This document shows, piece after piece, positions 953 through 59,588 of a DNA stretch of 64,000 bases (the first letter of the stretch is position 1; each line of letters begins with the position of its first letter). The translations under genes were made by a program, and so were the position numbers. The notes under the pieces were generated by a model. The model did not search any database and had not been told where the DNA came from. It saw only the letters and a list, made by a program, of their open reading frames with translations. This DNA comes from an uncultured Gammaproteobacteria bacterium (GTDB lineage Bacteria; Patescibacteriota; Patescibacteriia; Magasanikbacterales; GWA2-37-8): assembly GCA_964355175.1 (NCBI GenBank), contig CAYHBZ010000002.1:332537-396536 (forward strand). Direction: 5' to 3'.

Positions 953-967
953 TTAAGACAAAAATTT

Positions 968-2404: not shown

Positions 2405-2405
2405 T

Positions 2406-3413: not shown

Positions 3414-3469
3414 GTTTCTTCGAAACTCTAGAAATCTTAAGACTCTTCGAGAAATATTAATTTTCTTAT

Positions 3470-4573: not shown

Positions 4574-4666
4574 GTCTTTGTCGGTAGTTAAATATTTAAG
4601 AATGTTGTTAATTTTGCAGAATTGTGGTAGTATAGCAATACTAAATATAATAATAATTTTAATTAT

Positions 4667-7600
4667 ATGAGAGAGGGATTTACTCCGTCGGTGGAAAGAC
4701 CGATGAACTATAAAAAAGAACGAAAGCAAGAATTGAGTGTTGCAGAGTTGTTATTTGATGAGATTAATACCGAAATTCAACGCTCTAACAAAGGTAAGGA
4801 AAAAGATAAAAAAATAAAATTTATTGATCATCCACGTTATGGCGAATGGAAAGCTTTGCGTGACGCCAATGTGGCTGAATCTTTACGGGCTGACTCTACC
4901 AAAAGAGAATCCGATTTTAGAAATGCGCACGAACAGGAGATGCAAGATTCTCGAGCGGTTTTTAATGATAGAGCAGATGAAAAGAATAGGGAATTAACGC
5001 TCCTAAGAGCGCAGGCTCAAGAAGCGGCCGCTTCTGAAGCAAAAAGGGCGGAAGTTTTGGCCGTAGAAGAAGCTAAAAGAAAGGACTTGGAGAGTTTGTC
5101 GATTGATAGATTTTATAGAGACGGTAAAAAAATTGATAGCGCTCATGCCAGCCAAAAAGACGCTGGTAATTTGCTGTTGGGTAAAAAAGATGCTGGATTA
5201 TCAGTGGCTGGTCGTTTGGTAGAAGATGGTTTTGAAGGTGAAGAGGCAAAAAGACAGATCAATAGTATTATCAAAGACATGGGTCAATTAAAAAATGTTT
5301 ATTCTGTTCAGATTAAGTCTTTGCAAGAAATGGGTTTGGTGGATAGAATTATGGGCAGACGCGCGGCTTTAGAAAAACAAATGGCTGAAACTCAGGCTGA
5401 TATCCTTTTGAAATCGGAGGCCCTCTTGAAAGAATTTAAAGTTTCTGGAAAAGTATTTGCTCAGCAAGAGATGATTGTGGAAAGATTGTGGGATTTGTCT
5501 AAAAAATTAGAAAATAAAGTGTCTGTTGGAGAGGCTGTGGTAGCGTTGACTGTTTTGGCAGCCATCCTGGCTGGTGGTGCTAGTGAAGTTGCTAAGAAAG
5601 TATCGGCAGCTGATGATTTTCGCGCTCCAGCGGTGGCGTCTTATGATACTTTCGGTGATTCCAATCTCGACCAAGATTCATTTACATCTGATTTGGTAGA
5701 GGGAAAAGTTAGTGGTTATAAGGTAAGCTCAGAAACTGTTTCTTCATCGGCTGAGTCTGAGAGTAAAGTAACTAAGGAATTATTCTCCTTAACCCCAGAA
5801 GAATCTGATAAAGTAAAAAGTTTTAAGGATTGGCGTCGAGCTATTCTTAATCCGGAATTTATTGGTAAAGAGAAAAAAGATGGATCTGTGCCTACAACTG
5901 AAAGAGGTCGTAATGTAGCTCCAGGGACTCAGTTGGAAATTTCAGTAGATGGTAATGTATTAATTGCCGGCGAAGTTGAAAAATATGGTAGTATTTGGGG
6001 TGTATTAGAAGAAAATAAAAATGAAATTAAAAAAGTTGCCAAAGAAAAAGGGTGGGGCAACTTAGATTTGCGTATTATTGAATCAGTTGATTCTAAAGAC
6101 GGCGAAAGTAAAATAAAAGGCAAAGTAGCTCATGATAAAGAGAAGGGTGATAGCAACAAATCCCGTAAAGACATAGCCAAAGTTGGTGCAGCTGATACTG
6201 GATCAGAGGATGAAAATCCGGCGCTAAAAGAGGCCGCCCGCCATTCTGCCAATGATCGACTTGGGGAAATTGGTGTCAGACATCAAATCGGCCATGATTA
6301 TCCTTCGCTAGATGGTTATCAAGGTGCAATTGATGAATTGAAAAAAATCAAAAATATTGATGCTAGTTTGGAAAATCCAGTCAAAGCGGAAATAAAACGA
6401 TTAGAAACAGCTAAAGAAGATTTAAAAAATAGATTGGTAAAAGCCAAAGGCGAAGCAGAAAAATATATCGAAAGTAAAGGCGTTAAGCATACAGTGGGAC
6501 TCGACTATAAAACTATTAAAGATTATGATCAGGCTATTGACGAATTAAGCCAGATTGAAGGCGGTATTGTTTTGCCGCCCATAGTGGATATGCAACAAAC
6601 AGATGATTCCAAGAGAATGTCTCAGATTAAAGATGGTGTCCGAGCAGAGAGAGAGCGTTTGGAAACAGCCAAGCAAAATTTAAGACTAAAACAGATCCAA
6701 GCGGGCATAGACAATGAGAGTTCGGTACCGGAAGCTGGGAAACCAGAAAAATTGGATTTTAAACCGTCTTTAAAAGTTTCCGATTTGATGTCAGATGCAG
6801 AGTTGAGTTTGGCGGCTAGTGGTGAAATGTATGGACGTAATTTAGTGAAAGCTCATAATTTGACTAGTTCAGTATTTGAATATTTGGGTGGAGAAGATCA
6901 ACATTTATTTGATTCTTTGTCTGAAAAAGATTTAAGAAAATTTTTGGGAATGGTTGAGGAAGCCAAAAGTTTATACAATCTTGTTTTAACTGTCAAAGAA
7001 GATGGTAAAATAAAGCCAAACCCAACTACAATAGAACAAGCCAAAAAAGGTCAAGAAATCGCTGGGAAATTGGCGATTGAGTTAGATGATGCTATTCCAA
7101 AAAATAGTGTGGACAAGGCGGTTGTTTCTGCTGGTCAGCGTCTAGAAATTTTATACAAAGAAACTGAATCTAGGACAGGAAATGTAGCTTTGTATGGGCC
7201 AGATGGAGCTTTGGATACACTACAAAAAGTCATGAAGAGTATAAAAACAAAAGGTAAGATCGGGAGTTCGGATCGTAAAATTTTAAAAAAAATAGAGAGT
7301 ACGGCTCATACTGTCTTGCATAGTGATAATAATCTTGAGCCGGATAAAAAAGCCGCCAAAGAAGTTTTGGCCATTTCTGTTATTTTGAAAGGGTCAATCT
7401 CTAAGAGGGATCAAAATCGTGTTGAGAAGGAAGAGTCAGCTGGTCTTGGAGTGCGCTATGAATTACCTAAGCCAGCAGATCAGAGAACCGACAAAGATCT
7501 AAATAAATTGTTGTCCAATAAAGTAAAAGATCAAATCAATCAAGCCTATGAATTGGCCGAAAAGCTGTCGGATGATAGTCCGTCGAGTGATGTAGCCTAT

Positions 7601-7888
7601 GATTTGGTTTCAGCCGCCGCTTTGCTTGAGCAGCTATTGTTGCGTCCTATGGAATTGGGAGATATTCAGGATAAATTAAGCAGAGCCGAAGATCTTATTT
7701 CAAAGACCCAGGCCAAGGTAGGTAATAGTAAGATTTATCCAAGGGAATACACAGAGGCTTTGAGCCAACTAAATTCCGCTTTTATTGGCACTCGGGATTC
7801 TTTGATAAAGACTGAGGTTATCAAGCAGATCGATAAGCGGGTCGCTCCGGTAGAAAAAATCGGCAAGCGCGTGGCCGATCGTAAATAA
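4667..7888 (+). CDS. large K/E-rich coiled-coil protein with a single central TM helix, function unknown
   Basis: 1073 aa, strongly charged low-complexity/coiled-coil composition, with internal repeats (..YQGAIDELKKI.. and ..YDQAIDELSQI..). One hydrophobic segment, VVALTVLAAILAGG. A candidate TTGTTA-17-TAGTAT promoter lies upstream. Confidence 0.5.
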   Translation: MREGFTPSVERPMNYKKERKQELSVAELLFDEINTEIQRSNKGKEKDKKIKFIDHPRYGEWKALRDANVAESLRADSTKRESDFRNAHEQEMQDSRAVFNDRADEKNRELTLLRAQAQEAAASEAKRAEVLAVEEAKRKDLESLSIDRFYRDGKKIDSAHASQKDAGNLLLGKKDAGLSVAGRLVEDGFEGEEAKRQINSIIKDMGQLKNVYSVQIKSLQEMGLVDRIMGRRAALEKQMAETQADILLKSEALLKEFKVSGKVFAQQEMIVERLWDLSKKLENKVSVGEAVVALTVLAAILAGGASEVAKKVSAADDFRAPAVASYDTFGDSNLDQDSFTSDLVEGKVSGYKVSSETVSSSAESESKVTKELFSLTPEESDKVKSFKDWRRAILNPEFIGKEKKDGSVPTTERGRNVAPGTQLEISVDGNVLIAGEVEKYGSIWGVLEENKNEIKKVAKEKGWGNLDLRIIESVDSKDGESKIKGKVAHDKEKGDSNKSRKDIAKVGAADTGSEDENPALKEAARHSANDRLGEIGVRHQIGHDYPSLDGYQGAIDELKKIKNIDASLENPVKAEIKRLETAKEDLKNRLVKAKGEAEKYIESKGVKHTVGLDYKTIKDYDQAIDELSQIEGGIVLPPIVDMQQTDDSKRMSQIKDGVRAERERLETAKQNLRLKQIQAGIDNESSVPEAGKPEKLDFKPSLKVSDLMSDAELSLAASGEMYGRNLVKAHNLTSSVFEYLGGEDQHLFDSLSEKDLRKFLGMVEEAKSLYNLVLTVKEDGKIKPNPTTIEQAKKGQEIAGKLAIELDDAIPKNSVDKAVVSAGQRLEILYKETESRTGNVALYGPDGALDTLQKVMKSIKTKGKIGSSDRKILKKIESTAHTVLHSDNNLEPDKKAAKEVLAISVILKGSISKRDQNRVEKEESAGLGVRYELPKPADQRTDKDLNKLLSNKVKDQINQAYELAEKLSDDSPSSDVAYDLVSAAALLEQLLLRPMELGDIQDKLSRAEDLISKTQAKVGNSKIYPREYTEALSQLNSAFIGTRDSLIKTEVIKQIDKRVAPVEKIGKRVADRK

Positions 7889-7904
7889 ACATTAATTACT
7901 AAAA

Positions 7905-7932
7905 GTCCCTCTGAAATCGAGGGGCTTTTTTA
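7905..7932 (+). terminator. rho-independent terminator
   Basis: Hairpin CCCTC-TGAAATC-GAGGG followed by a T-run. Confidence 0.6.
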
Positions 7933-7974
7933 TTTGCCAAAAAGCCGAATATTTGCTAGAATACCAATGTATTT

Positions 7975-8877
7975 ATGCATTTTATAGGCAATAAACAAAT
8001 CGCTAATTTTTTGGAATCATCGTTTGAAAACGGTACTTTTGGTCACGCTTATTGTCTGATAGGCGCGTCTGCGGTGGGCAAGCGCACTCTGGCCAATGAA
8101 TTGGCCGCCAAAATTTTGGAAACTACGGTCGGCAGTCTGCCTACCAATCCGGATTATGTGTATGTGCAACGCCTAGAAGACGAAAAAACCGGTAAAAAGA
8201 AAAAAGAGATCGCGGCTGATCAGATCAGACAGGTTCGTGAAAAATTTTATAACAGTTCCTGGCTCAATGGGTATAAAGTAATAGTGCTCGACGAAGCCGA
8301 ATTGCTAAATGAAGAATCAGCCAATGCCTTTTTAAAAATTCTTGAAGAACCGCCGGCCAAAAGTATTATTTTTATCTTGACCGAGAATGATAATTTGCTC
8401 TTGCCTACTATTCGTTCGCGCTGTCAGTGTTTGGAATTATCAGCGGTATCAGATGTGGAAATTTCCGAGTTTTTAAAAAGTTTAAATTGTCACGACAGTC
8501 AGGCGCAAGAAATTATTAAATTAGCCTGGGGGCGTCCGGGCAAAGCCAAAGAGCTTTTGGCGGACAATGAAAAATATTTACAAAATTTTGAAGAGCAAAG
8601 ACGGTTTGAAAAAATTCTGAGATCACCAATCTATGAACGCTGGGCGCTGATGGAGGATGTGCTCAGTGAAAAAGGCGGTCTGATAAAAACCAAAGAAAAG
8701 CTTGAACCGATTTTGGAAAGCTGGATAATGTTTTGGAGAGATCTAATGATTGCCGATCTGGCCAATGGAAAAAAATATCAGCAAAATATCGATCAAACCA
8801 ATAAAACAAAAAATCTGTTCGGTGCCAATGTCAATTCCAAGCTGGCAATCGAACAGCTCTTAACTAATATTTATTAA
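7975..8877 (+). CDS. holB: DNA polymerase III delta' subunit
   Basis: AAA+ clamp-loader P-loop (GASAVGKRT) and SRC motif (SRCQCLEL). Confidence 0.8.
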   Translation: MHFIGNKQIANFLESSFENGTFGHAYCLIGASAVGKRTLANELAAKILETTVGSLPTNPDYVYVQRLEDEKTGKKKKEIAADQIRQVREKFYNSSWLNGYKVIVLDEAELLNEESANAFLKILEEPPAKSIIFILTENDNLLLPTIRSRCQCLELSAVSDVEISEFLKSLNCHDSQAQEIIKLAWGRPGKAKELLADNEKYLQNFEEQRRFEKILRSPIYERWALMEDVLSEKGGLIKTKEKLEPILESWIMFWRDLMIADLANGKKYQQNIDQTNKTKNLFGANVNSKLAIEQLLTNIY

Positions 8878-8879
8878 AC

Positions 8880-9962
8880 TTGTATATGCGTAAACTTTAT
8901 TTACTAGGCGCGATAGTGACAGCTCTGCTCACGGCTGGAGCCGGTTGTTTGCAGTTTGGTGCCAGCACTGCCGTTGGTCCGATGGGCATGTACCAGTCGT
9001 CAGACAAAGGCGAAGTCTGGAAGCAGATCGCCGCTTTTCCTAGCTTGCAAGGAGTAAAAAGTATTAGCGGGGTGAATGTTTATCGTGTTCATACTGATCC
9101 TTCTGATCCAAACGCGCTTTATATTGCTTCTCGCGGTCAGGGCGTTTATTATTCTTTAGACAACGGCGCCAGTTGGCAGGGAGTGCCGGCGATGAGCGGC
9201 AAATTTATTTATGGCTTGGCGGTGGATCCAAAAGATAAGTGCACGGTATTTGTTAGCGACGGCGCTCATATTTATAAAACTATCGATTGTCTGCGTACCT
9301 TTAATATTATCTATACCGAAGAGCGTCCGGATCAGCGTGTGGTGTCGGTATCGGTAGATTATGGTAACAGCAATTTGGTGTATGCGGCTGAACTGGGTGG
9401 TGATCTTTTGGCTAGTAATGATGCTGGGCGCAGTTGGCGCGTGACCAAACGTTTTGGTTTCCAACTTCAGTATTTGGAAAGTGATAAATTTAATCCGGGT
9501 CGTATTTGGGTGGCCGCTTATCAGAATGGTTTGTTCCGTTCCGACAATGGCACTGATTGGAATGATCTGTCTCCGGGATTAGAAAATTTTACCGATGGCA
9601 AGAAGTTTTATCGCCTAGTTCTCAATCCTGGTAAAAAGAACAGTGTATTCTGGGTTTCCAAATATGGAATTTTGGAATCTAACGATGCCGGTAATAATTG
9701 GACTGAATTGAAATTAATCACTCCTCCAGGCAGTGTGAATATTTATGGATTTGCAGTGAATGGAAAAAATCAAAACGAAATGTATTACACCGGCACAATC
9801 TTGGGAGACAAAAATGTGCATGTGCGTTCTACTTTTTACAAAACCACCGATGGCGGTAAGAATTGGGTGACTAAAAAATTACCGACCAATACTATCCCGA
9901 CATGGATTTTGATTAATCCGGACAAGGACAGTATTTTATCTATGGGTTTTGCGACTTTATAA
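8880..9962 (+). CDS. BNR/Asp-box repeat lipoprotein (Ycf48-like)
   Basis: Signal peptide with a lipobox (LTAGAGC). At least six S-x-D-x-G-x-x-W Asp-box repeats (SSDKGEVW, SLDNGASW, SNDAGRSW, SDNGTDW, SNDAGNNW, TTDGGKNW). Confidence 0.7.
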   Translation: MYMRKLYLLGAIVTALLTAGAGCLQFGASTAVGPMGMYQSSDKGEVWKQIAAFPSLQGVKSISGVNVYRVHTDPSDPNALYIASRGQGVYYSLDNGASWQGVPAMSGKFIYGLAVDPKDKCTVFVSDGAHIYKTIDCLRTFNIIYTEERPDQRVVSVSVDYGNSNLVYAAELGGDLLASNDAGRSWRVTKRFGFQLQYLESDKFNPGRIWVAAYQNGLFRSDNGTDWNDLSPGLENFTDGKKFYRLVLNPGKKNSVFWVSKYGILESNDAGNNWTELKLITPPGSVNIYGFAVNGKNQNEMYYTGTILGDKNVHVRSTFYKTTDGGKNWVTKKLPTNTIPTWILINPDKDSILSMGFATL

Positions 9963-10000
9963 TTAATTTCACTTATTTCGATTATATCTAATATATAATC

Positions 10001-10052
10001 TTCATTCATTCGGAAATGAATTTATAAATAAATTCATTTCTCTCACTCATTT
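10001..10052. repeat. overlapping palindromes; member of the short intergenic repeat family (TCATTCATTCGG..ATGA.. / CTCACTCATT motifs)
   Basis: GAAATGAATTTAT-A-ATAAATTCATTTC is a perfect 13-bp-arm palindrome. ATTCATTCGGAAATGAAT is a second hairpin. Both motifs recur at 40458, 61087, 61842 and 62941. Confidence 0.5.
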
Positions 10053-10057
10053 AGATT

Positions 10058-10606
10058 ATGAACATTAATGATTTTAAGGGGGAATTTGATAAGGTGGTAG
10101 ATTTCTTGAAAAAAGATATTGTGGGTTTGCGTACTGGGCGAGCTTCGGTGGCAATGGTAGAGGATATTTCGGTAGAAGCCTATGGCACCTATCAGCCTCT
10201 GAAATCCGTGGCCTCGATTATGATCGCCGATGCCAAGACCTTAAATATTGAACCTTGGGATAAGAGTGTGGTAGGAAATATCGAAAAAGGCATTCGTGAT
10301 TCCGGTATCGGTGTCAATCCGGTAAATGATGGCCGGGTGATTCGCGTGATCTTGCCGGATCTCACTACCGATCGCCGTCGTGAATTGACCAAAGTCTTGC
10401 ACGAAAAATTGGAAAACGCCCGCGTGTCTATGCGTAAAGTGCGTCAGGAAGCCCGAGAACTGATAGAAATGGAAGAAGAAAATAAAGCCGTGAGCGAAGA
10501 TGAAAAATTCAAACTGTTTGAAGATTTAGAAAAAATGGTAAAAGATTACTCCGAACAAATTAAAGAAGTGGGGGAGAAGAAAGAAAATGAAATTAATACT
10601 ATTTAG
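10058..10606 (+). CDS. frr: ribosome recycling factor
   Basis: Full-length match to the RRF pattern (..VDFLKKDIVGLRTGRAS.., ..VGNIEKGIRDSGIGVNP..). Confidence 0.9.
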   Translation: MNINDFKGEFDKVVDFLKKDIVGLRTGRASVAMVEDISVEAYGTYQPLKSVASIMIADAKTLNIEPWDKSVVGNIEKGIRDSGIGVNPVNDGRVIRVILPDLTTDRRRELTKVLHEKLENARVSMRKVRQEARELIEMEEENKAVSEDEKFKLFEDLEKMVKDYSEQIKEVGEKKENEINTI

Positions 10607-12000: not shown

Positions 12001-13290
12001 ATGTATAAAGTTCAAAAATTAAAAAATAAAATTACTCTGATCACGGTACCGCTTTCGGGTACCAAGGCTACTACTGTGCTCGTGATGGTGCCGGTAGGTT
12101 CGCGCTATGAGCACGAAAAAATTTCCGGCATCTCACATTTTGTAGAGCATGTGATGTTCAAAGGCACACATAAACGTCCAACCGCGCAAGATATTTCCCG
12201 CGTATTGGATGCGGCGGGAGCGGACTATAATGCTTTTACTAATAAAGACTATACCGGTTATTATGTTAAAATCGATTCTGCTCAACAGCGCCTCGCTTTT
12301 GATTTGATGGGGGATATGTTATTTAATTCCAAGTTTGAAGCGGTAGAAATTGAAAAAGAAAAAGGCGCAATTGTGGAAGAGTTGCGCATGTATGAAGATA
12401 ATCCTACAATGAATTTAGATACAGTTTATGAAAAACTGTTATTTGGCGATTGTCCTTTGGGTTGGGATGTCGGTGGTACAGAAAAAAGCGTACGCGGTAT
12501 TACTCACAGTGACATGTGGAATTATTATCAATCGGCTTATAAACCAGACAATATGGTATTGGTGGTGGCCGGTAAAATTGATAAAAAATTAAAAAATAAT
12601 TTGAAGTTTTTTGTAAATGACGATTATAAAAAGAATAAAACTAAGCAATCCATAAAGAAAGACACCTTTAAGAAATTTGCTTGGCCAAAAAATTTACCTT
12701 CTTTAAATGGTAGAGTAACGGTAAAAGAAAAAAAATTAGACCAGTCGCATGTGATCGTGGGTTTTCCTGGTTTATCACTAAATCATCCGGATAGATATGT
12801 GGCCACCGTATTGCTCAATATTTTGGGAGGCGGTATGAGCTCTCGTTTATTTGTGGAAGTGCGTGAAAAACGCGGGTTGGCCTATATGGTGCGAGCGGCC
12901 AGCAGTAATTATCGCGATGTCGGTACTATGTATGTTCAGGCCGGTTTGGATCCGGCGCGTTTGGCGGAAGCGATTCAAGTAATCCGTGCCGAACTGCAAC
13001 GCATAGTAAATGAGCCAGTAACAGAGAAAGAATTGGCCGATGCCAAGAGTAGTATTTGTGGACGAATGACTTTGGGCATGGAAGAATGTAGCTCTCAGGC
13101 CGAATGGTTTGCCAAGCAGTTTTTATTTTCCGATAAAATTAACACTTACGAAGAGGTGCTTGAAAAAATAAAAAAAGTTACGATAAAAGATGTCCAACGC
13201 GTCGCCGATAAAATTTTTGATTGGAAAGAAGTGCGAGCGGCCGCGATTGGTACTGTAAAAAAAGAAGATTTAATTAAAATTTTAAAATAA
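12001..13290 (+). CDS. M16-family (insulinase-like) zinc peptidase
   Basis: Inverted zinc-binding motif HFVEH (HxxEH) and pitrilysin-like layout. Confidence 0.85.
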   Translation: MYKVQKLKNKITLITVPLSGTKATTVLVMVPVGSRYEHEKISGISHFVEHVMFKGTHKRPTAQDISRVLDAAGADYNAFTNKDYTGYYVKIDSAQQRLAFDLMGDMLFNSKFEAVEIEKEKGAIVEELRMYEDNPTMNLDTVYEKLLFGDCPLGWDVGGTEKSVRGITHSDMWNYYQSAYKPDNMVLVVAGKIDKKLKNNLKFFVNDDYKKNKTKQSIKKDTFKKFAWPKNLPSLNGRVTVKEKKLDQSHVIVGFPGLSLNHPDRYVATVLLNILGGGMSSRLFVEVREKRGLAYMVRAASSNYRDVGTMYVQAGLDPARLAEAIQVIRAELQRIVNEPVTEKELADAKSSICGRMTLGMEECSSQAEWFAKQFLFSDKINTYEEVLEKIKKVTIKDVQRVADKIFDWKEVRAAAIGTVKKEDLIKILK

Positions 13291-15843: not shown

Positions 15844-16118
15844 GGGCAGATACCAAAGTGGCTAACTGGGGCAGACTGTGAACAATTGCAGCTCTTAGAG
15901 GTAACTCTAGGATGAACTCTCTGGGATAACGGTGAAAGCTAATGGGGGTGCTAATACCGTGGGAACTTCGCAACGTGCGGAGAGCGCCGTAGAGACTAGA
16001 TACCAGAGTATCCCGATTCAGTTGGGATAAAGATATAGTCCATGCCGTAAGGAAACTTATGGATAAGTGAAATCTGCTGGCTCCGCCTTCGTAGGTTCGA
16101 ATCCTACTCTGCCCACCA
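15844..16118 (+). tRNA. tRNA-Tyr(GUA) split by a group I intron in the anticodon loop (exons 15844-15879 and 16070-16118, CCA encoded)
   Basis: The joined exons read GGGCAGA-UA-CCAA..UGGG-G-CAGAC-U-GUA-AA-UCUGC-UGGCUCCGCCUUC-GUAGGUUCGAAUCCUAC-UCUGCCC-A-CCA. This is a type II tRNA with a long variable arm. The anticodon stem-loop GCAGACUGUAAAUCUGC is identical to bacterial tRNA-Tyr. Confidence 0.75.
15880..16069 (+). other. group I self-splicing intron (IC3-like, ~190 nt) within tRNA-Tyr
   Basis: The conserved S element AAGAUAUAGUCC matches the group I consensus exactly at 16029-16041. The R-like element GUAGAGACUAGAUA at 15989-16002 supplies the P7 pairing GACUA/UAGUC. The 5' exon ends in U, which can pair with the internal guide GCAG near the intron start. 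The intron ends in G just before the 3' exon. Confidence 0.7.
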
Positions 16119-23367: not shown

Positions 23368-23454
23368 CTACCACTGTCGACAAAATTTTGACTGCAAAGG
23401 TAGGCCGCACATCCTACCTCCTTTGGTTGGTGTGCGGGTAAATGACATGGTATC

Positions 23455-24204
23455 TCAGGTGCCGTACTGGGCGTGCTGGCGAAGTTGCTCCAGTTCCGCG
23501 GAGGTAGTCTCGATTTCTTCTGGATTCGCTTTCGCGTTTTCCAGAAGAGTCAGGACTTTGTCCACGGCCGTGCTGGCTTCGTCGCTTGACCAGTGCTTGC
23601 GTTTGCGTAGACGTGAAACCTCTCTCTGAGCTTGTCGCAGATAGGCCGACCTGATCCAGCTACGCCATCTTTCAATGTTTTGCCGGACGTAGGCGGGATC
23701 AGAGTAGTCGATGAGACTTGCCAGGATGTCGCCCGGCGAAGTATTGATCCAAGCTTTGTCTGGATACCTCTCCAGAGCCTGCTCGAGAATGTCCACGCGG
23801 CAGTTCAAGTACGCCGTCAGCATCTGTTCTTCCGAGAAAGGAGAGATGTCGACGTGCTTGAGCTTGAACAGCCTACAAATTCTTTTGACCTCCTTGATTT
23901 CGGTCAAGAAGTTTTCTCTCGCTGCCAGTGCTTCTGGCAACGATCTGGAGCTGCTCGACATCAGATCTGCACACCACACCGTGAGGTAGTGGCGAGCGAG
24001 TTGACGGCGTTCGTCTTCGTTCACGTGGCCCTTGAGATCCTGCAACTTCTGCAGTGCATCTTTCGGGTCGTTCCAGTTGCGCTCACCCAGCTCGGCGATG
24101 ATTTCTTGGTGTGCTTGTTTACGTTTCTTGGCGCGGTGCTTCTTGGCCATCACTGCGATGATGAAGACGCACGCGATAAATGCAACAATAACGGTGAGTT
24201 CCAT
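23455..24204 (-). CDS. orphan membrane-anchored protein encoded in high-GC islet 1
   Basis: 249 aa with an N-terminal TM helix, then a charged helical domain. GC is ~58% against ~38% in the flanks, with GC-rich third codon positions. No motif I recognise. Confidence 0.5.
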   Translation of the reverse strand: MELTVIVAFIACVFIIAVMAKKHRAKKRKQAHQEIIAELGERNWNDPKDALQKLQDLKGHVNEDERRQLARHYLTVWCADLMSSSSRSLPEALAARENFLTEIKEVKRICRLFKLKHVDISPFSEEQMLTAYLNCRVDILEQALERYPDKAWINTSPGDILASLIDYSDPAYVRQNIERWRSWIRSAYLRQAQREVSRLRKRKHWSSDEASTAVDKVLTLLENAKANPEEIETTSAELEQLRQHAQYGT

Positions 24205-24336
24205 TTGCCCCCCCTAGTAGAACTTTGTAGGCAGTAGACACCATGTCTAAAAGCCAAAATAAGTTGGTAGCTAAATACTGTATATTCGCTTACCAACCGA
24301 TTTTGGACTATTGTAAAAAGAACACGAATTTGGCGA

Positions 24337-24365
24337 ATTATAGCACAAAAGTTAGTTTTTGTCAA
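24337..24365 (-). promoter_or_regulatory. consensus sigma70 promoter (TTGACA-17-TATAAT) for the islet 1 gene
   Basis: The reverse complement reads cTTGACAaaaactaacttttgtgcTATAATtcg, about 130 nt upstream of the start at 24204. Confidence 0.5.
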
Positions 24366-24482
24366 GTATTTTAGCTGTTATTAGCCAAAAAATATCTCTT
24401 TAGATAGCCTTGTTTTTTCATAGACCGTATGGTAATATAAAAGCTCAAAAGACTCCTGTTTTTGTTTTTAATCTAGCTTTTT

Positions 24483-27314
24483 ATGTCTTTTTTTACCAAA
24501 ATTTTCGGCGATCCCAACGCCAAAGTCTTAAAAGAAATTTATCCAATAGTGGATAAAATAAATTCTTTTGAACCGTCATTACAAACTTTGTCATTGGAAC
24601 AATTAAAAAATAAAACCACCGAATTTAAAGAGCGTTTGGCCAAAGGCGAAACTCTTGATGATATTTTACCGGAAGCTTTCGCGGTAGTGCGTGAGGTTTC
24701 TCGCCATGTTACCGGCATGCGTCATTTTGATGTACAGATGATTGGTGGTATTGTGTTGCATCGTGGACAAATTTCCGAAATGCGTACGGGTGAAGGTAAG
24801 ACTTTGGTAGCTACTTTGCCAGTATATCTCAATGCGCTCGCTGGAAAAGGTGTGCATTTGGTGACAGTCAATGATTATTTGGCCAAGCGTGATGCTGTTT
24901 GGATGAGTCAGATTTATGACGCGCTGGGCATGAGTGTTGGTATTATTCAGCAACAGCTCGTGTCATATAAATATAATCCTAATAAATTAAAAATCACCGA
25001 CGCTGATGGCAAAGACGCAATGAGCGAAGGTGGTAGTATCGACGCCGAGCGCGACGCCACCGGTGCGTTTAAGGTAGAATATGAATACCTGGAAAATTGT
25101 ACCCGCAAAGAAGCGTATGCTTGTGATATTACTTACGGCACCAACAATGAATTTGGTTTTGATTATCTGCGCGACAACATGGTGGGTAATTTATTCGAAA
25201 TGTCTCAGCGACCTTTTTATTTTGCGATCGTCGATGAAGTCGATTCCATTTTGATCGATGAAGCGCGCACACCGCTGATTATTTCAGCTCCAGCCGAAGA
25301 AGCGACCGATACTTATTATAAATTTTCCGACATCGTAAATACTTTGGAAGAAAAAGCAGATTACAACGTGGATGAAAAAATGCGCGCCAGCACTCTCACG
25401 GAAGCGGGTATCAAAAAGATCGAACAAAAACTCGGCGTAGAAAATATTTATGCCGATGGTAGTATGAGTATGGTGCATCACACCGAGCAGGCCTTGCGTG
25501 CTAAATCTCTTTTCAAACGTGATCGCGATTATGTGGTAGAAAATGGCGAAGTGATTATCGTGGACGAGTTCACCGGTCGCAAGATGGCGGGTCGTCGCTA
25601 TAATGAAGGTCTACACCAGGCGATAGAGGCCAAAGAGCGTGTGGCGATTCAGCGTGAAAGCCAAACCATGGCCACAATTACTTTTCAAAATTATTTCCGT
25701 CTTTACACCAAGCTCTCTGGTATGACCGGTACGGCTGTTACCGAAGCGGAAGAATTTGGCAAAATTTATAATTTGGAAGTAACGGTAATTCCTACCAACC
25801 GCGCTAATTTGCGCTCCGATCATCCGGATAGAATTTACAAAACCGAAGCCGCTAAATATCAGGCTATCGCCAAAACCGTAAAAGAATTACAATCCAAAGG
25901 CCAGCCGGTTTTGATTGGTACTATTTCGGTAGAAAAAAATGAAGCCCTTAGTCTGTATTTGGAAAGAGAAGGTATTAAACATGAAATTTTAAACGCTAAA
26001 AATCACGAACGAGAAGGTGAAATCATCGCTCAGGCCGGTCATGCGGGCGCGGTGACTATCGCTACCAACATGGCGGGTCGTGGTGTGGATATTATTTTGG
26101 GTGGTAATCCACCGGTAGTGGAGGAGGCTCAAAAAGTACGTGCCAACGGCGGTCTATTTGTAATCGGTACCGAGCGCCACGAAAGTCGCCGTATCGACAA
26201 TCAGCTTCGTGGTCGCGCCGGTCGTCAGGGTGATCCGGGTGAAACTCAATTTTATCTTTCTACCGAAGATGATCTCATGCGTATTTTTGCCGGCGACAGA
26301 ATTCGCTCCGTGATGCAGACTCTGCGCGTGCCGGATGATATGCCAATCGAGCAAGGTTCTATTACACGCATCATCGAATCCGCTCAGAAAAAAGTAGAAG
26401 GTTTCCATTTTGATTCTCGTAAACATTTGCTGGAATACGACGATGTGCTGAACCGTCATCGTGAAGTGATTTATGGTCGCCGCCGTCAGATTTTGGAAAT
26501 TTTTGAACAACAAAAGAATAATATTATTGCTGGCACAGACGTCGCCAACACTGCCGCCGCCGACACCAACAACGCTGTTATCACGAGCGCCAGCGAGGGA
26601 TCTGTGAAGTCGCCAGCAAAAACTCTCCAAGACCTAATTTTAGAAATGACCGAAAATGAGATCGAACAGCTTGTATCTTTTCATACCAATGCCGAAGATA
26701 AAAATGTCTGGGAGATGCAAGAATTGGTAGATAGTGTCGGTACGATTTATCCTTTGAGCGAAGAAGAAAGAAATAAAATTTTGAATCTGGGTGAACATGG
26801 CACTGAAAAATTGGAAGCGGTAGAAGCGCGCACTCATGTTATTGAAACCCTTACCAATTGGGCCAAAGAAAAATATCAGAAAATGCTGGTAGAAAAAATT
26901 AACAATCCACCAATCCAGGCTGAAGTAGAAAAACAAATTCTTTTGCGCGCTACTGATGGTCTCTGGATTGATCACCTTGTAGCCGTCGATTATCTGCGCG
27001 CCGGTATTGGTCTGCGCGGCTATGGTCAGCGCGATCCGTTGGTAGAATACAAACGCGAAACCTATCACATGTTCAATAGTTTGCTCTCCGCGATTTCGCA
27101 TGATGTAGTATATAATATTTTCAAAATAAATATCGGTATTCAGATGGGTGAAGATAATCTGGCCAGAAAAAATCTGGTCTACAGCGGCCCAGAGACTGAA
27201 TCCAAAATCGTCGATACTACTCACGTAAAAAACGAAGAAGGTGAAAAAGTGGGACGCAACGATTTGTGTCCGTGTGGAAGTGGGAAGAAGTATAAGCGGT
27301 GCCACGGCGCGTAA
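24483..27314 (+). CDS. secA: preprotein translocase ATPase SecA
   Basis: DEAD-like motor, preprotein cross-linking domain, C-terminal zinc finger CPCGSGKKYKRCHG. 943 aa. Confidence 0.95.
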   Translation: MSFFTKIFGDPNAKVLKEIYPIVDKINSFEPSLQTLSLEQLKNKTTEFKERLAKGETLDDILPEAFAVVREVSRHVTGMRHFDVQMIGGIVLHRGQISEMRTGEGKTLVATLPVYLNALAGKGVHLVTVNDYLAKRDAVWMSQIYDALGMSVGIIQQQLVSYKYNPNKLKITDADGKDAMSEGGSIDAERDATGAFKVEYEYLENCTRKEAYACDITYGTNNEFGFDYLRDNMVGNLFEMSQRPFYFAIVDEVDSILIDEARTPLIISAPAEEATDTYYKFSDIVNTLEEKADYNVDEKMRASTLTEAGIKKIEQKLGVENIYADGSMSMVHHTEQALRAKSLFKRDRDYVVENGEVIIVDEFTGRKMAGRRYNEGLHQAIEAKERVAIQRESQTMATITFQNYFRLYTKLSGMTGTAVTEAEEFGKIYNLEVTVIPTNRANLRSDHPDRIYKTEAAKYQAIAKTVKELQSKGQPVLIGTISVEKNEALSLYLEREGIKHEILNAKNHEREGEIIAQAGHAGAVTIATNMAGRGVDIILGGNPPVVEEAQKVRANGGLFVIGTERHESRRIDNQLRGRAGRQGDPGETQFYLSTEDDLMRIFAGDRIRSVMQTLRVPDDMPIEQGSITRIIESAQKKVEGFHFDSRKHLLEYDDVLNRHREVIYGRRRQILEIFEQQKNNIIAGTDVANTAAADTNNAVITSASEGSVKSPAKTLQDLILEMTENEIEQLVSFHTNAEDKNVWEMQELVDSVGTIYPLSEEERNKILNLGEHGTEKLEAVEARTHVIETLTNWAKEKYQKMLVEKINNPPIQAEVEKQILLRATDGLWIDHLVAVDYLRAGIGLRGYGQRDPLVEYKRETYHMFNSLLSAISHDVVYNIFKINIGIQMGEDNLARKNLVYSGPETESKIVDTTHVKNEEGEKVGRNDLCPCGSGKKYKRCHGA

Positions 27315-27327
27315 ATAAAAAATAAAA

Positions 27328-27356
27328 GACCTTTGCAAAAGCAGAGGTTTTTTTTA
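27328..27356 (+). terminator. rho-independent terminator
   Basis: GACCTTTGC-AAAA-GCAGAGGTT followed by T8. Confidence 0.7.
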
Positions 27357-27469
27357 TACAAAAAATTGACTTTTTTATAAATTAGTTTAATATATTCTCA
27401 AGTTTCCATCTGGCTATGGTATGCATGTCGCATACTTGGCATGAGAAGGAAAAGCCTGGGGGGATTATC

Positions 27470-27934
27470 ATGGACTTCGCTCTTACCCGCGGTTTTCGCA
27501 TTGCCGCGGAGATCATCATCATCCTGTCGGTGATCAGCATGGCGCTCGAGTGCATCGTGCTGTCTCTGGGTCTGTCCACGATGGCGGATCTGTCACACTA
27601 CATGGTCTCGACCGCCTTTTCGGCGTTCGTCGGCGGTGTCATGTGGTGGTATTTCGGTCTCCGCCACAACGCCTCCGTGATCAAGGCGTTGAAGTACTGG
27701 CGCGACGAGTTTCCACCGGTGGATTCTGTCGGGCTGTTTCTCGGGGTGACCTTCGTGATCATCTTCGTTCTGGTGTCGCTGTCGCAGCTCGTGCGCTGGG
27801 TCCTGCAGACTCACGCTGGTCTGGAGAGCTGGTGGATCCAGAACATGGTGATTGCCTTGGCTGCTTCTGCCATGTTCCTTCTAGCCATCGTGGCCGATGC
27901 TGTGCGTAGAAGGATGATTGACGGTCGCGATTGA
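27470..27934 (+). CDS. orphan 4-TM membrane protein encoded in high-GC islet 2 (alternative start 27416)
   Basis: ~60% GC. Four hydrophobic helices. TTGACT-16-TAATAT promoter at 27366-27393. The ATG at 27470 follows GGGGGGATTATC. Confidence 0.45.
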   Translation: MDFALTRGFRIAAEIIIILSVISMALECIVLSLGLSTMADLSHYMVSTAFSAFVGGVMWWYFGLRHNASVIKALKYWRDEFPPVDSVGLFLGVTFVIIFVLVSLSQLVRWVLQTHAGLESWWIQNMVIALAASAMFLLAIVADAVRRRMIDGRD

Positions 27935-28142
27935 GGTGGCGCGTCTTCGAACAAGAAGGAGGGACATGTCCATTCGTGCTCCGCCCCCAATAGGGGCGGC
28001 AGTGAGGAGGAAGAAACCATCGACCACCAAACTGCTTTTCATCTAAATGTACATTTGGATATAGAGCAGAGTGGTCGATGGTTTTTTTGTTTAGTTATGT
28101 TATAATATTTATTGAAGAAATATATTTATTACAGAATTAATT

Positions 28143-28349
28143 ATGATCACGCCCGGAACCTACCGCCACTACAAAGGAAAAGATTATGAAGTAATCGGTA
28201 TTGGCAAAAATGAAGCCACATTGGAAGAGGTCGTAATTTATAAAGCTCTATATGATGGTGGTAGTATTTGGGTGCGCACCTTGAAAGTTTTTGAAGAAAA
28301 AGTGGAAGTAAATGGGGAAGTAGTGCCTAGATTCAAATTTATAAAGTAA
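28143..28349 (+). CDS. DUF1653-family small protein
   Basis: ..PGTYRHYKGKDYEVIG..LEEVVIYKALYDGGSIWVR.. matches the DUF1653 signature as I remember it. Confidence 0.6.
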   Translation: MITPGTYRHYKGKDYEVIGIGKNEATLEEVVIYKALYDGGSIWVRTLKVFEEKVEVNGEVVPRFKFIK

Positions 28350-33311: not shown

Positions 33312-33340
33312 TTGACAAAACCACTATTTTATGCTATACT
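33312..33340 (+). promoter_or_regulatory. near-consensus sigma70 promoter (TTGACA-17-TATACT) for the islet 3 gene
   Basis: aTTGACAaaaccactattttatgcTATACTatt. A perfect 16-bp-arm palindrome follows at 33392-33438. Confidence 0.5.
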
Positions 33341-33501
33341 ATTCAGTTAGTTCTTTTATAACTATAATGACCAAGTCGTACCAAAAGAGGTAATGGGTAT
33401 CATATATTTCTAAAAAATAGGAATATATGATACCCATTTGCCTCCGGAACTTTTTCCTGAGGCGTTCGTTGGCTGGGTGCCAACATCCTTCAGGAGACAA
33501 G

Positions 33502-33909
33502 ATGAATCCCTCGGTTACTTATTGTGTGATTCTCGTCCGTGATGTGGTGGATGAAGAAGGGCGGAAGGAAGAGTACGAATCGCCGTTTGTTGTGACCAAG
33601 GAGTCACAGTGGTCGTTCGGGTTCTTGCCCGAAACGGACCAGGAGATCCGCTTCGGCGAATTCGGTGACAACGAGAAGGAGACCATCGCCAATGTAACCA
33701 TGACCAGGATCTATCCCGACAGTGGGCGGATGGTTATCTTTTGCAAGGTCAAGTACATGTGGGACATGCAGAGGTTGCGCACGCAGGGTTGGACGCTCGA
33801 AGGCTCTGTCCGTCTCGGTGCACCGGAGGTGGAAGTCCTGTACCAATGGCACCTCAATTGGGCGGATAATGGCTATAAGGACAAGGATCTCCAAGAAGCG
33901 GAGTTCTAG
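33502..33909 (+). CDS. orphan soluble protein encoded in high-GC islet 3 (alternative start 33427)
   Basis: ~57% GC. Starts MNPSVTYCVIL.. with the Shine-Dalgarno CAGGAGAC just upstream. No motif I recognise. Confidence 0.45.
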   Translation: MNPSVTYCVILVRDVVDEEGRKEEYESPFVVTKESQWSFGFLPETDQEIRFGEFGDNEKETIANVTMTRIYPDSGRMVIFCKVKYMWDMQRLRTQGWTLEGSVRLGAPEVEVLYQWHLNWADNGYKDKDLQEAEF

Positions 33910-34085
33910 TCCTCTGTCGTCAGCCCAACAGCCCCACTCGCTACAAGCGGGCAGTGGGGCAGACGCGGTAGATATCACTCGCCGCGCAATTTGAAAATAA
34001 CATATTTGTTTTCAGATTGTGCGAGTGATATAAACGCTTAAAAAATAAAACACACCAATTAAATTTGGTGTGTTTTTTGTTTTGT

Positions 34086-37600: not shown

Positions 37601-37655
37601 CCAAAATAATTATCGCCCCCCAGATCAGTTGTTTTTTAAAATTGAGGTACTTCAT
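34629..37655 (-). CDS. giant cell-surface protein: signal peptide, GH16/concanavalin-like domain, Thr-rich linkers, prenyltransferase/terpene-cyclase-like alpha/alpha-toroid repeats, C-terminal TM anchor
   Basis: HELDIEH matches the GH16 catalytic ExDxE motif. ..QEADGGFAYPGPF..TDGGWGCYDY.. resemble squalene-cyclase/prenyltransferase repeats. Long T/S-rich low-complexity runs. C-terminal VLAVTGGSAAALGLYLGLRLI anchor. Confidence 0.65.
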   Translation of the reverse strand: MKYLNFKKQLIWGAIIILGIVFVAGNSRAEENTTTTEETSSTSTTTVIEAETTQSTETNSTTTTTENFTPLILEAFGPTILDTIDFAGRTWKVRGGTGLPGITDTGIKNNWGNTDKDVFLDGSALHLRVSQHADDQKWYSSEVYLPASLGYGKYTFEINTRPDLLDHNLVAAPFLYQDDSHELDIEHSYWADETGSDNLFYVVQPGSKDGNKQISVATFSDGIFEDIIDWQPDKINFSTTQNGNTISSWTYTTSTDGSTNNFDPSNALVDINFWQYRGLIPTNNTTNEFIINNFTFDPYVAPTPEDTGSVASTASSTDLTVNLNIRYQNGFVFSGPVTLSTNTLITYNQGLTTSTTSTTVLTALINAAQNTTTFSISDLQLSDYGYYLNCLYIESIATSTCGNWNYVVNNVYPQVGMGSMTLNGGENIYIYFGDSWKITTPSNNVYINTSTPFYTWKYNYSDLSNEWVLDPNDLVAITIPNPTPTGWWDTDITVSTTLSNDQGVAYYNFSSTGTYSAKITDENYLKWSAPITLVVTDLPSNQNTTSTTSTSGGGSSSPSNQLISTTAIDSAVTKLINFIKTNQSADGKIIDAGTSDWLALTFAAKNIYAADVKNSSSSLYNYLYNYDSSLLDTELNSCAAYPRHILGLLASSVAKNDSKIIALKTKLDACVQNNIFGQTGINDDIFGLIAAIAIGEDQNSPVVQTTLSAIKANQEADGGFAYPGPFESPDLTGAAVNALKYAENNGATVNADIYTKAKQYLKNQQHTDGGWGCYDYTNGCAESDSLTTSWAVMGINALGEGQNEWFNSVGKNPWYILTTLNNDHFTQSWDGGIDWFGTKSAVPAMLGKSWPITLDPKSVTTGSGGSSEIIVIPTSTPTTTIATTTIATTTVATTTIATTTPATTTVVLATELPETKPVILVAQPTVKVVAVSPTTNNDSNNSSDNITSLKQQQQLSSAEKIEDKTSPIDDLPLDTPTRRTAKKVLAVTGGSAAALGLYLGLRLIKNVL

Positions 37656-38265
37656 ATTTCCAAGTTAGTGAATCGTTATTTTTTAAAATATAATTTGAGA
37701 TGCCCGTTTGCGCCGGTTTGCTATTGAGGTAGTAGATCCAGTATTTGCCGGCATTCTTATCGGTTTTGACTCCATCGATTTCATCTACGAAATATCCTAG
37801 GCTAGAAAATGGTTTGAAAATGGCAGTGATTTTTTTCTCGTCTACCAGCTGTGCCATCGCGTCATAGGCCGTAGATTTTTCGGCCATCAGCAATGAATAG
37901 TTTTGGCCGTTAATTATTATCGTAACACTCAGAGTATTTTTTTCTGGAATTGGAGTGGTGGTTGGGGTGGCTTCGGAAGGTGTGTCAGTCGCCACGTTAG
38001 AATTTTTTTGTTCAGGCTGTCTGGTTTCTTTTTTCTGTTCCGGTACGGTCAGAGTGGTGTTGGTGGCGACATCAGACCAAGGCAGACTTTGCGCCACAGG
38101 AGCGGGCGAGACTGGTTTGGGTGTCGCGGCTTTATTTGGCAGTAGCAGATAGGCGCCGCTAGCTAGGGCCATGAATATTAGGACCATCCAGAGCCGCGTT
38201 AGGTGTTTGTTATGCATATTGTTATTTAAAAAAGAAAAAACCCTTTCCCGGGAGAAAAGATTCAA
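37636..38265 (-). CDS. secreted/anchored DUF4430-domain protein (transcobalamin beta-domain-like)
   Basis: C-terminal ..SAYDAMAQLVDEKK..GYFVDEIDG..KYWIYYLNS..WKYEV.. matches the DUF4430 pattern. N-terminal TM helix and a Pro/Thr-rich linker. Overlaps the start of the giant surface-protein gene by 20 nt. Confidence 0.55.
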   Translation of the reverse strand: MNLFSRERVFSFLNNNMHNKHLTRLWMVLIFMALASGAYLLLPNKAATPKPVSPAPVAQSLPWSDVATNTTLTVPEQKKETRQPEQKNSNVATDTPSEATPTTTPIPEKNTLSVTIIINGQNYSLLMAEKSTAYDAMAQLVDEKKITAIFKPFSSLGYFVDEIDGVKTDKNAGKYWIYYLNSKPAQTGISNYILKNNDSLTWKYEVPQF

Positions 38266-38447
38266 AAATAGAACATTCCTGCTCGGGAAGAACTATTATT
38301 TGAAGACCGGACTTGTTCTCGACTTAGTCGAGACTTTACCGTTGCGGCACAGTGGAGGAATTGACCTCACTTCCACAAATAATAGGTTAAATTGTATGTA
38401 TAAACTATCAGGGTTCTAAGGCACTGTCAAAGCGGGTGTGGATAAGT

Positions 38448-59190: not shown

Positions 59191-59196
59191 AACAAA

Positions 59197-59224
59197 AATC
59201 CTCCAATAATTTGGGGGATTTTTT
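59197..59224 (+). terminator. rho-independent terminator
   Basis: AATCCTCCAA-TAAT-TTGGGGGATT plus T-run. Confidence 0.8.
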
Positions 59225-59318
59225 AATAGTGTAGTTCTGGCCGGCCCCCAACTACTTCAGCATTTGGACCTTGCGGTCCGTGTGCCTTTTCGTCGGGGGC
59301 CGGGTGGCAGGAACTTCT

Positions 59319-59588
59319 TCAGGCAGCGACGCTACGCATCTTGTCCGCGTGCAGGGTCTGGCTGCTAGAACGCAGCGAGCCGCTGATGTGCCGCAGGCCA
59401 GGCTTTTCGCCCAGACTCACGCAGAGCTCAGGACCCGACAGTACGCCCTTGAGCGCCAGGGTGAGTTGGTGCCCGCGTTCCATGTAGACCACGGTGAGGT
59501 GCTCGCCCCAGTCGGTGATGATCGTATGGCCACACTTGAGTTGGGGCCAGTTGTTCCGCGTGAGATCGCGGGCATTGAAGGTCGTCAT
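59319..59588 (-). CDS. orphan protein encoded in high-GC islet 4
   Basis: ~60% GC. Probable start at MTTFNARDL. The longer track ORF starts inside the promoter. TTGACA-17-TATAAG promoter at 59649-59677 on the minus strand. Confidence 0.4.
   Translation of the reverse strand: MTTFNARDLTRNNWPQLKCGHTIITDWGEHLTVVYMERGHQLTLALKGVLSGPELCVSLGEKPGLRHISGSLRSSSQTLHADKMRSVAA

Follow-up and report, generated by a model that had tools for sequence, protein, structure and literature searches.

The 64-kb stretch of DNA analysed here (the window), part of a contig that extends to 954 kb, carries, between secA and a DUF1653 gene, a short GC-rich block, islet 2, which is probably an autonomous, horizontally exchanged single-gene expression cassette, chromosomal and moron-like, that splits a gene pair lying tightly together in a relative. 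Relatives of the SecA protein encoded here come from metagenome-assembled genomes of Candidatus Magasanikbacteria and other Patescibacteria, of the candidate phyla radiation (CPR). Genomes of this group are tiny and streamlined, and the way in which they gain and express genes is poorly understood; the locus indicates that single genes can arrive as complete transcription units. Because such a unit adds a terminator and a promoter-like spacer for its neighbours, the expression of the essential genes around it (secA, secDF) need not be lost.

Islet 2 lies between the secA stop codon (27314) and the DUF1653 gene (28143), with secD and secF next downstream. Its GC content, taken over 200 nt at a time across 27405-28055, is 0.54-0.605 against a mean of 0.41 for the window, so the GC-rich block that the initial annotation had described directly after the secA terminator is borne out. 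Four short blocks of the window exceed 54% GC, at 23378-24191, 27405-28055, 33456-34010 and 59183-59668. The elements of the islet 2 locus are listed below from left to right.

27324 to 27355, forward strand: short terminator hairpin of secA, with a stem of 27328-27336 / 27341-27349 and then a T-run.
27366 to 27393, forward strand: predicted sigma-70-type promoter TTGACT-16-TAATAT, with hexamers at 27366-27371 and 27388-27393, scoring 9/12 in the promoter scan; left edge of the conserved cassette.
27400 to 27469, forward strand: 5' untranslated region (UTR), with a hairpin of GTATGC 27419-27424 / GCATAC 27430-27435 and a G-rich ribosome-binding site, GGGGGG, at 27458-27463.
27470 to 27934, forward strand: open reading frame (ORF) for a 154-residue orphan membrane protein with four predicted transmembrane (TM) helices; homologues P0002-P0006.
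27956 to 28046, forward strand: Shine-Dalgarno (SD)-like AAGGAGG (27956-27962) and a mini-ORF from the ATG at 27966, reading MSIRAPPPIGAAVRRKKPSTTKLLFI and then a stop; its first seven codons are conserved, in the islet 2 subfamily only.
27973 to 28008, forward strand: 3' hairpin 1, with the core CCGCCCC/GGGGCGG at 27981-27999.
28011 to 28090, forward strand: 3' hairpin 2, a 77-nt imperfect hairpin (28011-28087) with a run of seven T at 28082-28088; right edge of the conserved cassette.
28091 to 28142, forward strand: AT-rich spacer before DUF1653, with TATAAT at 28101-28106; absent from the empty site described below and unlike the L007 sequence.

The limits of the unit are given by its relatives in other settings. 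These are a version with 91% nucleotide identity at the same site in a related strain (L007), and further copies in L008 and L120/L243 (a genome of about 30% GC), in L227 and in L228. Alignments with all of these start at the -35 box (27366) and end a few nucleotides past the U-run (about 28090), with unrelated sequence on either side. The promoter string AATTGACTTTTTTATAAATT is kept in L007 and L008 and nearly kept in L120, L227 and L228. Since the similarity spans the -35 hexamer to the U-run, the conserved entity is exactly promoter to terminator, and this promoter-to-U-run unit occurs in at least four genomic contexts besides that of the window. The promoter lies in AT-rich DNA immediately to the left of the GC-rich block, which is where it had been annotated at the outset.

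Comparison with relatives that lack the unit gives insight into what was added. In L240 and L241, where the C-terminal region of SecA is 90% identical to that of the window, the site is empty: the secA TAA is followed by 7 nt and the DUF1653 ATG, and there is no terminator. Relative to this arrangement the window has about 820 extra bp (approximately 27324-28142), made up of the secA terminator, the cassette and the AT-rich spacer. At L240 430-450, secA and DUF1653 look like one operon; at 27312-28145 of the window the cassette stands between the two genes, which have a terminator or a promoter-like sequence apiece. Another GC-rich ORF occupies the site downstream of secA in L242. In L009 (SecA 80% identical; 6800-10200) the gap between secA and secD holds three GC-rich cassettes in both orientations, one of them encoding a 465-residue SspA/DndA-like cysteine desulfurase, and DUF1653 is missing.

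Compared with L007, the window has a synonymous divergence (dS) of 0.13 within the cassette ORF and of 0.62 in the secA codons next to it; the cassette therefore postdates the divergence of the two hosts, which is most simply explained by exchange of the cassette through recombination. The ratio of nonsynonymous to synonymous divergence in the cassette is 0.68, and this suggests that the islet 2 protein is under weak or diversifying constraint and evolves fast. BLAST searches of phage and plasmid sequences with the cassette, and of phage sequences with its protein, gave no match, and scans of viral contigs for the stem, the hairpin core, the mini-ORF and the islet 3 hairpin returned chance matches only. 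A scan of metagenomes with the loose pattern ATCGACCAC-N38-56-GTGGTCGAT gave at least 120 stretches, or 138 scored matches with 18 stretches of viral contigs counted in; among the 120 listed, one (L120) was a true relative. No transposase is present in any cassette copy examined. Elements of the IS200/IS605 or PATE-like kind have similar subterminal hairpins at both ends, recognised by one TnpA; in the cassette the 5' hairpin (GTATGC/GCATAC) bears no sequence relation to those at the 3' end. Among the ten neighbouring ORFs that were scanned, a minority of those in the window, there is no recombinase, of the tyrosine or any other kind.

The single gene of the cassette is protein-coding, with a codon usage foreign to its host. 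GC content at the three codon positions is 0.55/0.41/0.77 in the islet 2 ORF and 0.55/0.35/0.41 in secA; the first two positions are thus host-like, and the third (GC3) stands at 0.77 against 0.36-0.41 in secA, DUF1653 and secD. Within the window this high-GC3 signature is restricted to the four islet ORFs. A non-coding RNA with a spurious ORF was considered and rejected on the frame-specific GC3, the conserved protein blocks and the absence of an Rfam match. We place the start at the ATG at 27470, which gives 154 residues, and not at 27416 (172 residues), because the homologues all begin MD(F/L)..RGF. Hydropathy predicts TM segments at about residues 10-33, 41-62, 85-106 and 122-143. An AlphaFold model of low confidence (pLDDT 61, pTM 0.35, from a 6-sequence alignment) has helices at 3-33, 38-66, 68-79, 84-115 and 121-151, and the two agree on four long hydrophobic helices and a short linker helix. 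The membrane protein without recognisable motifs that was first described here is thus a real ORF, an orphan and predicted to cross the membrane four times, with its start corrected from 27416.

No family in Pfam, PADLOC or PHROG matches the islet 2 protein; its own family comprises three clusters in a search of 5.8 billion proteins and four representatives in 1.84 billion clusters. This small family is a mosaic. In the window and L007 an N-terminal half with two TM helices is joined to a C-terminal half with two more; in L008, L120/L243 and L227 the same N-terminal half precedes an unrelated soluble C-terminal domain, and L228 carries an internally deleted form. As no more than a guess, the protein may be an accessory envelope protein under diversifying pressure. 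A poly-C tract in the family member of L120 has eight C and is frameshifted (about 12240-12250), and that of L243 has seven and is intact (about 4220-4230); this difference is either a homopolymer sequencing error or slipped-strand phase variation. The leader hairpin upstream of the ORF is kept, as judged by eye, through wobble pairs and double changes (GTGTGC/GCATAC in L008, GTGTGC/GCGCGC in L227).

The 3' end of the cassette carries two hairpins. The first, CCGCCCC-caata-GGGGCGG, lies exactly where it had been annotated, at 27981-27999. The 14-bp inverted repeat reported at 28013-28087 is also present, with its arms at 28014-28027 and 28071-28084, within 1-3 nt of the original coordinates; a repeat finder extends them to 17 nt at 94% (28011-28027 / 28071-28087) around a 43-nt spacer. 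What does not hold is the description of the intervening 45 nt or so as a spacer, as this region is itself paired, with 28026-28050 complementary to 28051-28075. Because the region between the arms is self-complementary, hairpin 2 is one continuous 77-nt hairpin followed by seven T. The 141-nt 3' region folds at -64.6 kcal/mol, compared with -34.9 +/- 3.8 kcal/mol for shuffled sequences (z = -7.9, 0/200).

The consensus of five homologous 3' regions has two hairpins, in which seven pairs show compensatory change and G·U pairs are numerous; in hairpin 1 CCCC/GGGG is replaced by CCCT/AGGG, alongside G·U substitutions. Consensus folding favours the sense strand, at -56.3 kcal/mol with a covariation term of -2.9, over the antisense strand, at -41.8 kcal/mol with a term of +1.8, and the antisense strand has A·C mismatches at many positions that are G·U on the sense strand. 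In eight copies of the module, whose alignment was fitted to the covariance model so that the pairing counts are to be read with that caveat, 94.4% of cells are paired and 23/52 pairs have changed on both sides, as against 8.5 +/- 2.1 in shuffles (0/500) and 2-6 in slid controls. Pairing in the eight copies reaches 100% in helix 5 and 95.5% in helix 6, and ten pairs of these helices have changed on both sides. On this covariation we take the 3' hairpins to be conserved structures of the sense-strand transcript. A run of 5-8 T follows hairpin 2 in every homologue, and for this reason hairpin 2 reads as an intrinsic terminator: at 28011-28087 and the T7 beyond it there is a stable stem-loop and then a U-run on the transcribed strand, as in rho-independent termination. 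The stem, at 77 nt and with internal loops, is longer than is typical, so a simple terminator scan misses it. Our conclusion is that hairpin 2, whose stem is unusually long, is a putative intrinsic terminator, with hairpin 1 probably an accessory structure of the 3'UTR. Rfam has no family for the two-hairpin module, a candidate new RNA motif, strongly supported by covariation, that can be searched for across CPR genomes.

The 3' module is portable between genes. A covariance model built from the five 3' sequences (R1) and searched over 506 kb of CPR loci recovered all the islet 2-type cassettes among them and three new copies in L228 (75-97 bits), each after a small GC3-rich ORF that differs from copy to copy and is preceded by a TTGACT promoter of its own. 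L228, from another CPR genome, has four cassettes with the islet 2-type module within 6.3 kb (seen at 1-4800), where they alternate singly with housekeeping genes (MFS, peptidase S51, DUF1294, folP and rhodanese). One of the L228 cassettes encodes, on its own, the soluble C-terminal domain of the islet 2 family (..LYHRYLW compared with ..LYRQYLRQ).

The other three islets have the layout of islet 2, with a promoter in AT-rich DNA, a GC3-rich orphan ORF, a GC hairpin and a second hairpin. The resemblance noted in the initial annotation therefore holds for the architecture; the module sequences differ, and the long hairpin of islet 3 lacks a U-run, a separate short terminator coming after it. 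The near-consensus promoters of islets 1, 3 and 4 are three of the ten sites in the window that score at least 11/12, and the 3' regions of all four islets fold strongly (z = -5.3 to -7.9). The islet 3 protein is a singleton among 5.8 billion proteins. Its surroundings (33312-34085) recur separately: a promoter-plus-leader of about 200 nt, with a 21-bp AT-rich hairpin and a GTTGGC/GCCAAC hairpin that shows a compensatory change, is found again at L227 350-560 (reverse strand) before an unrelated secreted protein. The 3' module, in which TAAACGCTT links a long hairpin to a short bidirectional terminator, recurs at L009 6790-6950 (reverse strand) after the 465-residue cysteine-desulfurase-like ORF, with compensatory changes in the terminator stem.

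Islet 1 (23378-24372) is syntenic in L240-L242 (3343-4340 in L240 and L242), and this allows its history to be read. Its UTR modules share 89% identity with those of L240, and its ORF 69% in DNA and 58% in protein. Its dS of 1.04 matches that of the flanking genes (0.88-1.17), so islet 1 has been inherited vertically; its nonsynonymous divergence (dN) is 0.32 where the flanks have 0.03-0.04, a rate of protein evolution about ten times that of its neighbours. Allele replacement as the source of the divergence is rejected by the same equality of dS. GC3 is 0.64-0.66 in all three lineages, in genomes where that of secA is about 0.35, and polarised synonymous changes are balanced (AT to GC 9, GC to AT 8), where the host bias predicts a ratio of about 1:3.4. 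The GC3 of islet 1 is therefore at equilibrium, which implies that a high GC3 is not simply a decaying foreign mark and that it is actively maintained, at least there. Such an equilibrium among other genes with GC3 near 0.35 represents an unexplained gene-specific compositional force. The 3'UTR of islet 1 also contains an in-frame mini-ORF of 26 codons, preserved in L240.

We propose the following scheme for islet 2. The promoter at 27366-27393 would drive a monocistronic mRNA, and the 154-residue product would insert in the membrane as a four-helix protein. Hairpin 2 and its U7 would terminate transcription and insulate DUF1653-secDF, which may use the AT-rich, promoter-like spacer (28091-28142) instead; hairpin 1 and the long stem may stabilise the 3' end of the mRNA. 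The arrival of the cassette and its later exchange between lineages would have occurred by recombination of imported DNA, and not through a self-encoded or site-specific recombinase.

A number of observations weigh against this scheme and against the autonomous, exchanged cassette on which it is built. Promoter use, the 3' end and termination are predicted from sequence; the promoter scores only 9/12, and promoter-like sites are no commoner in the region than in shuffles. The 77-nt stem is unusually long for a terminator and better conserved than the ORF, and the latter suggests a function beyond termination. As the segment of about 820 bp that distinguishes the window from the empty site exceeds the conserved unit, the event was no clean cassette-sized insertion, and the "empty" site of L240 could instead reflect a precise loss. 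No target-site duplication, terminal repeats or associated recombinase are seen at the cassette. The L243 cassette lies near a ParB-methyltransferase and a weak small-terminase-like match, with cellular genes (ABC-F, hydrolases) farther away on a related contig, and a mobile-element neighbourhood is possible for it. Finally, the maintained GC3 of islet 1 weakens foreign codon usage as evidence for recent transfer.

Four other explanations of islet 2 were weighed. The GC step of about 20 points is abrupt and the ORF is an orphan, as might be expected had reads of a high-GC organism been joined into a low-GC CPR contig. This we regard as having practically no chance of being right. The junctions are identical in SPAdes/ENA and Logan assemblies from at least six samples: exact matches to the islet 2 protein occur on eight contigs, and the order secA-ORF-DUF1653-secD is found at six places in six samples or assemblies, so that the context given by independent assemblies excludes a chimeric join. 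The 91%-identical version in L007 stands at the equivalent site, the AT-rich promoter and the hairpin loops accompany the ORF into other contexts, and the ORF is in no high-GC contig in the searches of 5.8 billion and 1.84 billion proteins. The relatives all lie in AT-rich CPR DNA, and none of the copies in unrelated high-GC contigs that the initial annotation had named as evidence of chimeric joining was found. A chimera is rejected on these independent assemblies and on the homologues at other loci. The initial annotation also raised the question of whether the terminal inverted repeat might be an attC or other recombination site, in which case islet 2 would be an integron-type cassette whose palindrome is recombined by an integron integrase as folded single-stranded DNA, and the islets would be scattered, SALIN-like cassettes. 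Integron cassettes and solitary attC sites (SALIN/CALIN) do resemble islet 2 in having a small, often orphan ORF followed by an imperfect palindrome of 60-140 nt and a cargo that varies at one and the same site. The imperfect palindrome after the islet 2 ORF, of 60-80 nt, has a bulged base and an asymmetric internal loop, different cassettes occupy one intergenic site among relatives, and folded as single DNA sequences the two strands are about equally stable (-19.3 and -19.9 kcal/mol). However, the core sites R'' (RYYYAAC) and R' (GTTRRRY) are absent from both strands, neither the top-strand ends of the window palindrome (AAGAAAC...GTTTTTT) nor the bottom-strand ends (AAAAAAC...GTTTCTT) fit them, and the flanking AAC/GTT is not kept among homologues, whose outer bases vary (GAAACC..GGTTTT in the window but GGCGTC..GACGTT in L228, where the palindrome runs from GGCGTC to GACGTTTT and lacks AAC). 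Unlike integron cassettes, islet 2 has its own promoter, conserved within the unit, and in L008, L227 and L009 the cassettes next to one another diverge or converge. The comparative data favour a structure of the sense strand and not of the recombined bottom strand, on which the G·U pairs become A·C; a U-run follows all copies, and the ten ORFs scanned around islet 2 have no integrase. Core sites, promoter, orientation and the strand of the structure lead us to reject the attC reading, which is very improbable.

The remaining two explanations concern the 3' region itself, and both are improbable, if less so than those above. One holds that the 3' module is the functional mobile entity, either a repeat of the REP/BIME, Correia or RUP kind or a small RNA derived from a 3'UTR, and that the ORF is incidental cargo. 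REP/BIME, ERIC, the Correia elements of Neisseria and the pneumococcal RUP/BOX are palindromic repeats of 3' regions that terminate transcripts or stabilise mRNAs, and the islet 2 module is like them in being a multi-copy, terminator-like structured element at gene 3' ends, with covariation. The identity between the window and L228 is 75% in the nucleotides of the module and 52% in those of the ORF (35% in amino acids), four copies lie within 6.3 kb of L228 after different ORFs, and every copy keeps a purine-rich, single-stranded GGAGG ahead of hairpin 1, most of them keeping one behind it too. The long hairpin and terminator of islet 3, a second module type, is likewise common to unrelated ORFs in the window and L009. 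Against this, each copy follows a small GC-rich ORF with its own promoter, and none is free-standing or follows a housekeeping gene in the 506 kb searched; unlike the REP-type elements, the module is tied to a class of small GC-rich genes and a matching promoter family and is not seen dispersed alone. The 64-kb window has a single copy, no internal promoter or processing site is evident, and in its sense orientation every module copy finishes with a U-run, as a plain terminator does. The other explanation, which we consider equally doubtful, is that of an arrest-peptide device, in which the MSIRAPP at the start of the mini-ORF would stall the ribosome at Pro-Pro and remodel the 3' structures, and so control read-through into DUF1653-secDF or the stability of the cassette mRNA. 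Ribosome arrest at RAPP is documented as versatile, robust and not relieved by EF-P, and the motif is depleted from proteomes (PMC10951233, PMC12992588); moreover, the C-terminus of ApdP is QSKCI-RAPP (PMC10951233), so that the IRAPP of the mini-ORF equals its last five residues. The SD-like GGAGG, the AUG and codons 2-7 are kept in 6/6 islet 2-type cassettes. These codons vary mainly at third positions (TCC/TCA/TCT, ATT/ATC, GCT/GCC, CCC/CCA), and four of the five variable sites are synonymous third positions. In the window the mini-ORF enters the 5' arm of the terminator, which translation would melt, and the cassette lies upstream of secDF, the position that apdA and apdP reportedly have according to Sakiyama et al. 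in 2021. Several features speak against such a device. The motif by itself carries no significance, as a six-frame translation of the window contains RAPP three times. The window, L007, L227 and L228 all encode MSIRAPP, but L008 and L120 have MSIRASP and then a stop, and the mini-ORF varies in length (7, 8, 23 or 26 codons), stopping before the terminator in L007. The Pro-Pro codons form the 5' arm of hairpin 1, and the variable sites also preserve its pairing. The spacing between SD and AUG is short (3-5 nt), the downstream genes differ by context, the next gene in L228 being convergent, and the documented RAPP peptides were assayed in much longer nascent chains. In comparison with the RAPP/RAGP peptides ApdA, ApdP, ApcA and SecM, the mini-ORF peptide is only 7-26 residues long, has no signal or TM segment by which to sense secretion, and has neither a motif kept throughout the module family nor conserved downstream genes. 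The three extra L228 copies have MRQTTGPP and a stop, no ATG, and no mini-ORF, respectively, and module copies other than those of the subfamily read TTGPP-stop, GPPF-stop or no ORF at all. As the covariance model found copies without it, the RAPP mini-ORF was downgraded as a defining feature of the 3' module, and a function for it is an improbable, subfamily-specific hypothesis. If stalling did occur, this would be by far the shortest natural RAPP arrest peptide.

Set against these alternatives, the exchanged single-gene cassette finds its nearest parallel in the morons of phages described by Hendrix and colleagues, which are autonomous promoter-ORF-terminator units between conserved genes of lambdoid and other prophages. 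Like a moron, islet 2 has a single ORF between a predicted sigma-70 promoter and a predicted factor-independent terminator of its own, has a deviant composition, lies between genes that are adjacent in a relative, and is present, absent or replaced at one site. Unlike a moron, it has no recognisable prophage around it, its neighbours being secA, DUF1653 and secDF, and it has no phage or viral matches; its UTR modules are conserved, structured and reused with different ORFs, and in islet 1 GC3 is maintained and not decaying. The "upstream homology box" loci erp/mlp of Borrelia and the vsp/vlp loci of Mycoplasma, which are paralogous families of small envelope proteins with conserved upstream boxes, share with the islets a conserved promoter or leader before fast-diverging small membrane or secreted proteins, and domain shuffling. 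They differ from the islet cassettes, which are dispersed singly between housekeeping genes and have a conserved 3' module, with no lipobox or phase switch shown. Our literature search on GC-rich cassettes or islets in CPR or Magasanikbacteria found nothing specific; horizontal gene transfer in Patescibacteria in general is documented (PMC12455944).

Taken by itself, the islet 2 locus is an ordinary-looking acquired orphan gene, and what is noteworthy about it is the portable, covarying 3' module, the hotspot at the flank of secA and the maintained GC3. As a speculative extension, with the balance of probability against it, Magasanikbacteria and related CPR may carry a plug-in cassette system. 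A few structured RNA modules, of promoter and leader at the 5' end and of a two-hairpin terminator at the 3' end, would be recombined with many fast-evolving small orphan genes for membrane, secreted and soluble proteins and dropped singly into gaps between housekeeping genes, the secA flanks being a hotspot; GC3 would be maintained against AT-biased mutation, and one family of modules would encode a minimal RAPP stalling peptide. If this were true, the maintained GC3 could give transcripts that are very stable, resistant to RNases or slowly translated.

Some further features of the window were seen in passing. On the reverse strand at 59731-61030 a tRNA gene is apparently split by an insertion of about 1.2 kb. 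Its 5' two-thirds (61030-60975) have the backbone of tRNA-Asp with a different anticodon arm (TCCCGACTTAGTCGGGA) and break off in the T arm. Inside the split are a 95-residue GIY-YIG-like ORF (60984-60697), an intact tRNA-Asp (60686-60612) and a 257-residue orphan ORF (60560-59787). The matching 3' piece (59790-59731) repeats without change the last 32 nt of the tRNA-Asp, and islet 4 starts right after it. Also on the reverse strand, at 61110-61260 and downstream of rplT, a promoter with a 12/12 score (TTGACA-17-TATAAT at 61254) leads into some 110 nt devoid of ORFs, in which a long hairpin, an exposed CCCCCUCC and a terminator make up a candidate small RNA whose loop resembles an anti-Shine-Dalgarno sequence. 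Two Rfam matches stand only just at the gathering threshold: a group I intron at 15850-16062 on the forward strand (50.6 bits), downstream of a 209-residue ORF, and an AdoCbl riboswitch at 38268-38401 on the reverse strand (51.9 bits), upstream of the gene at 37636-38265.

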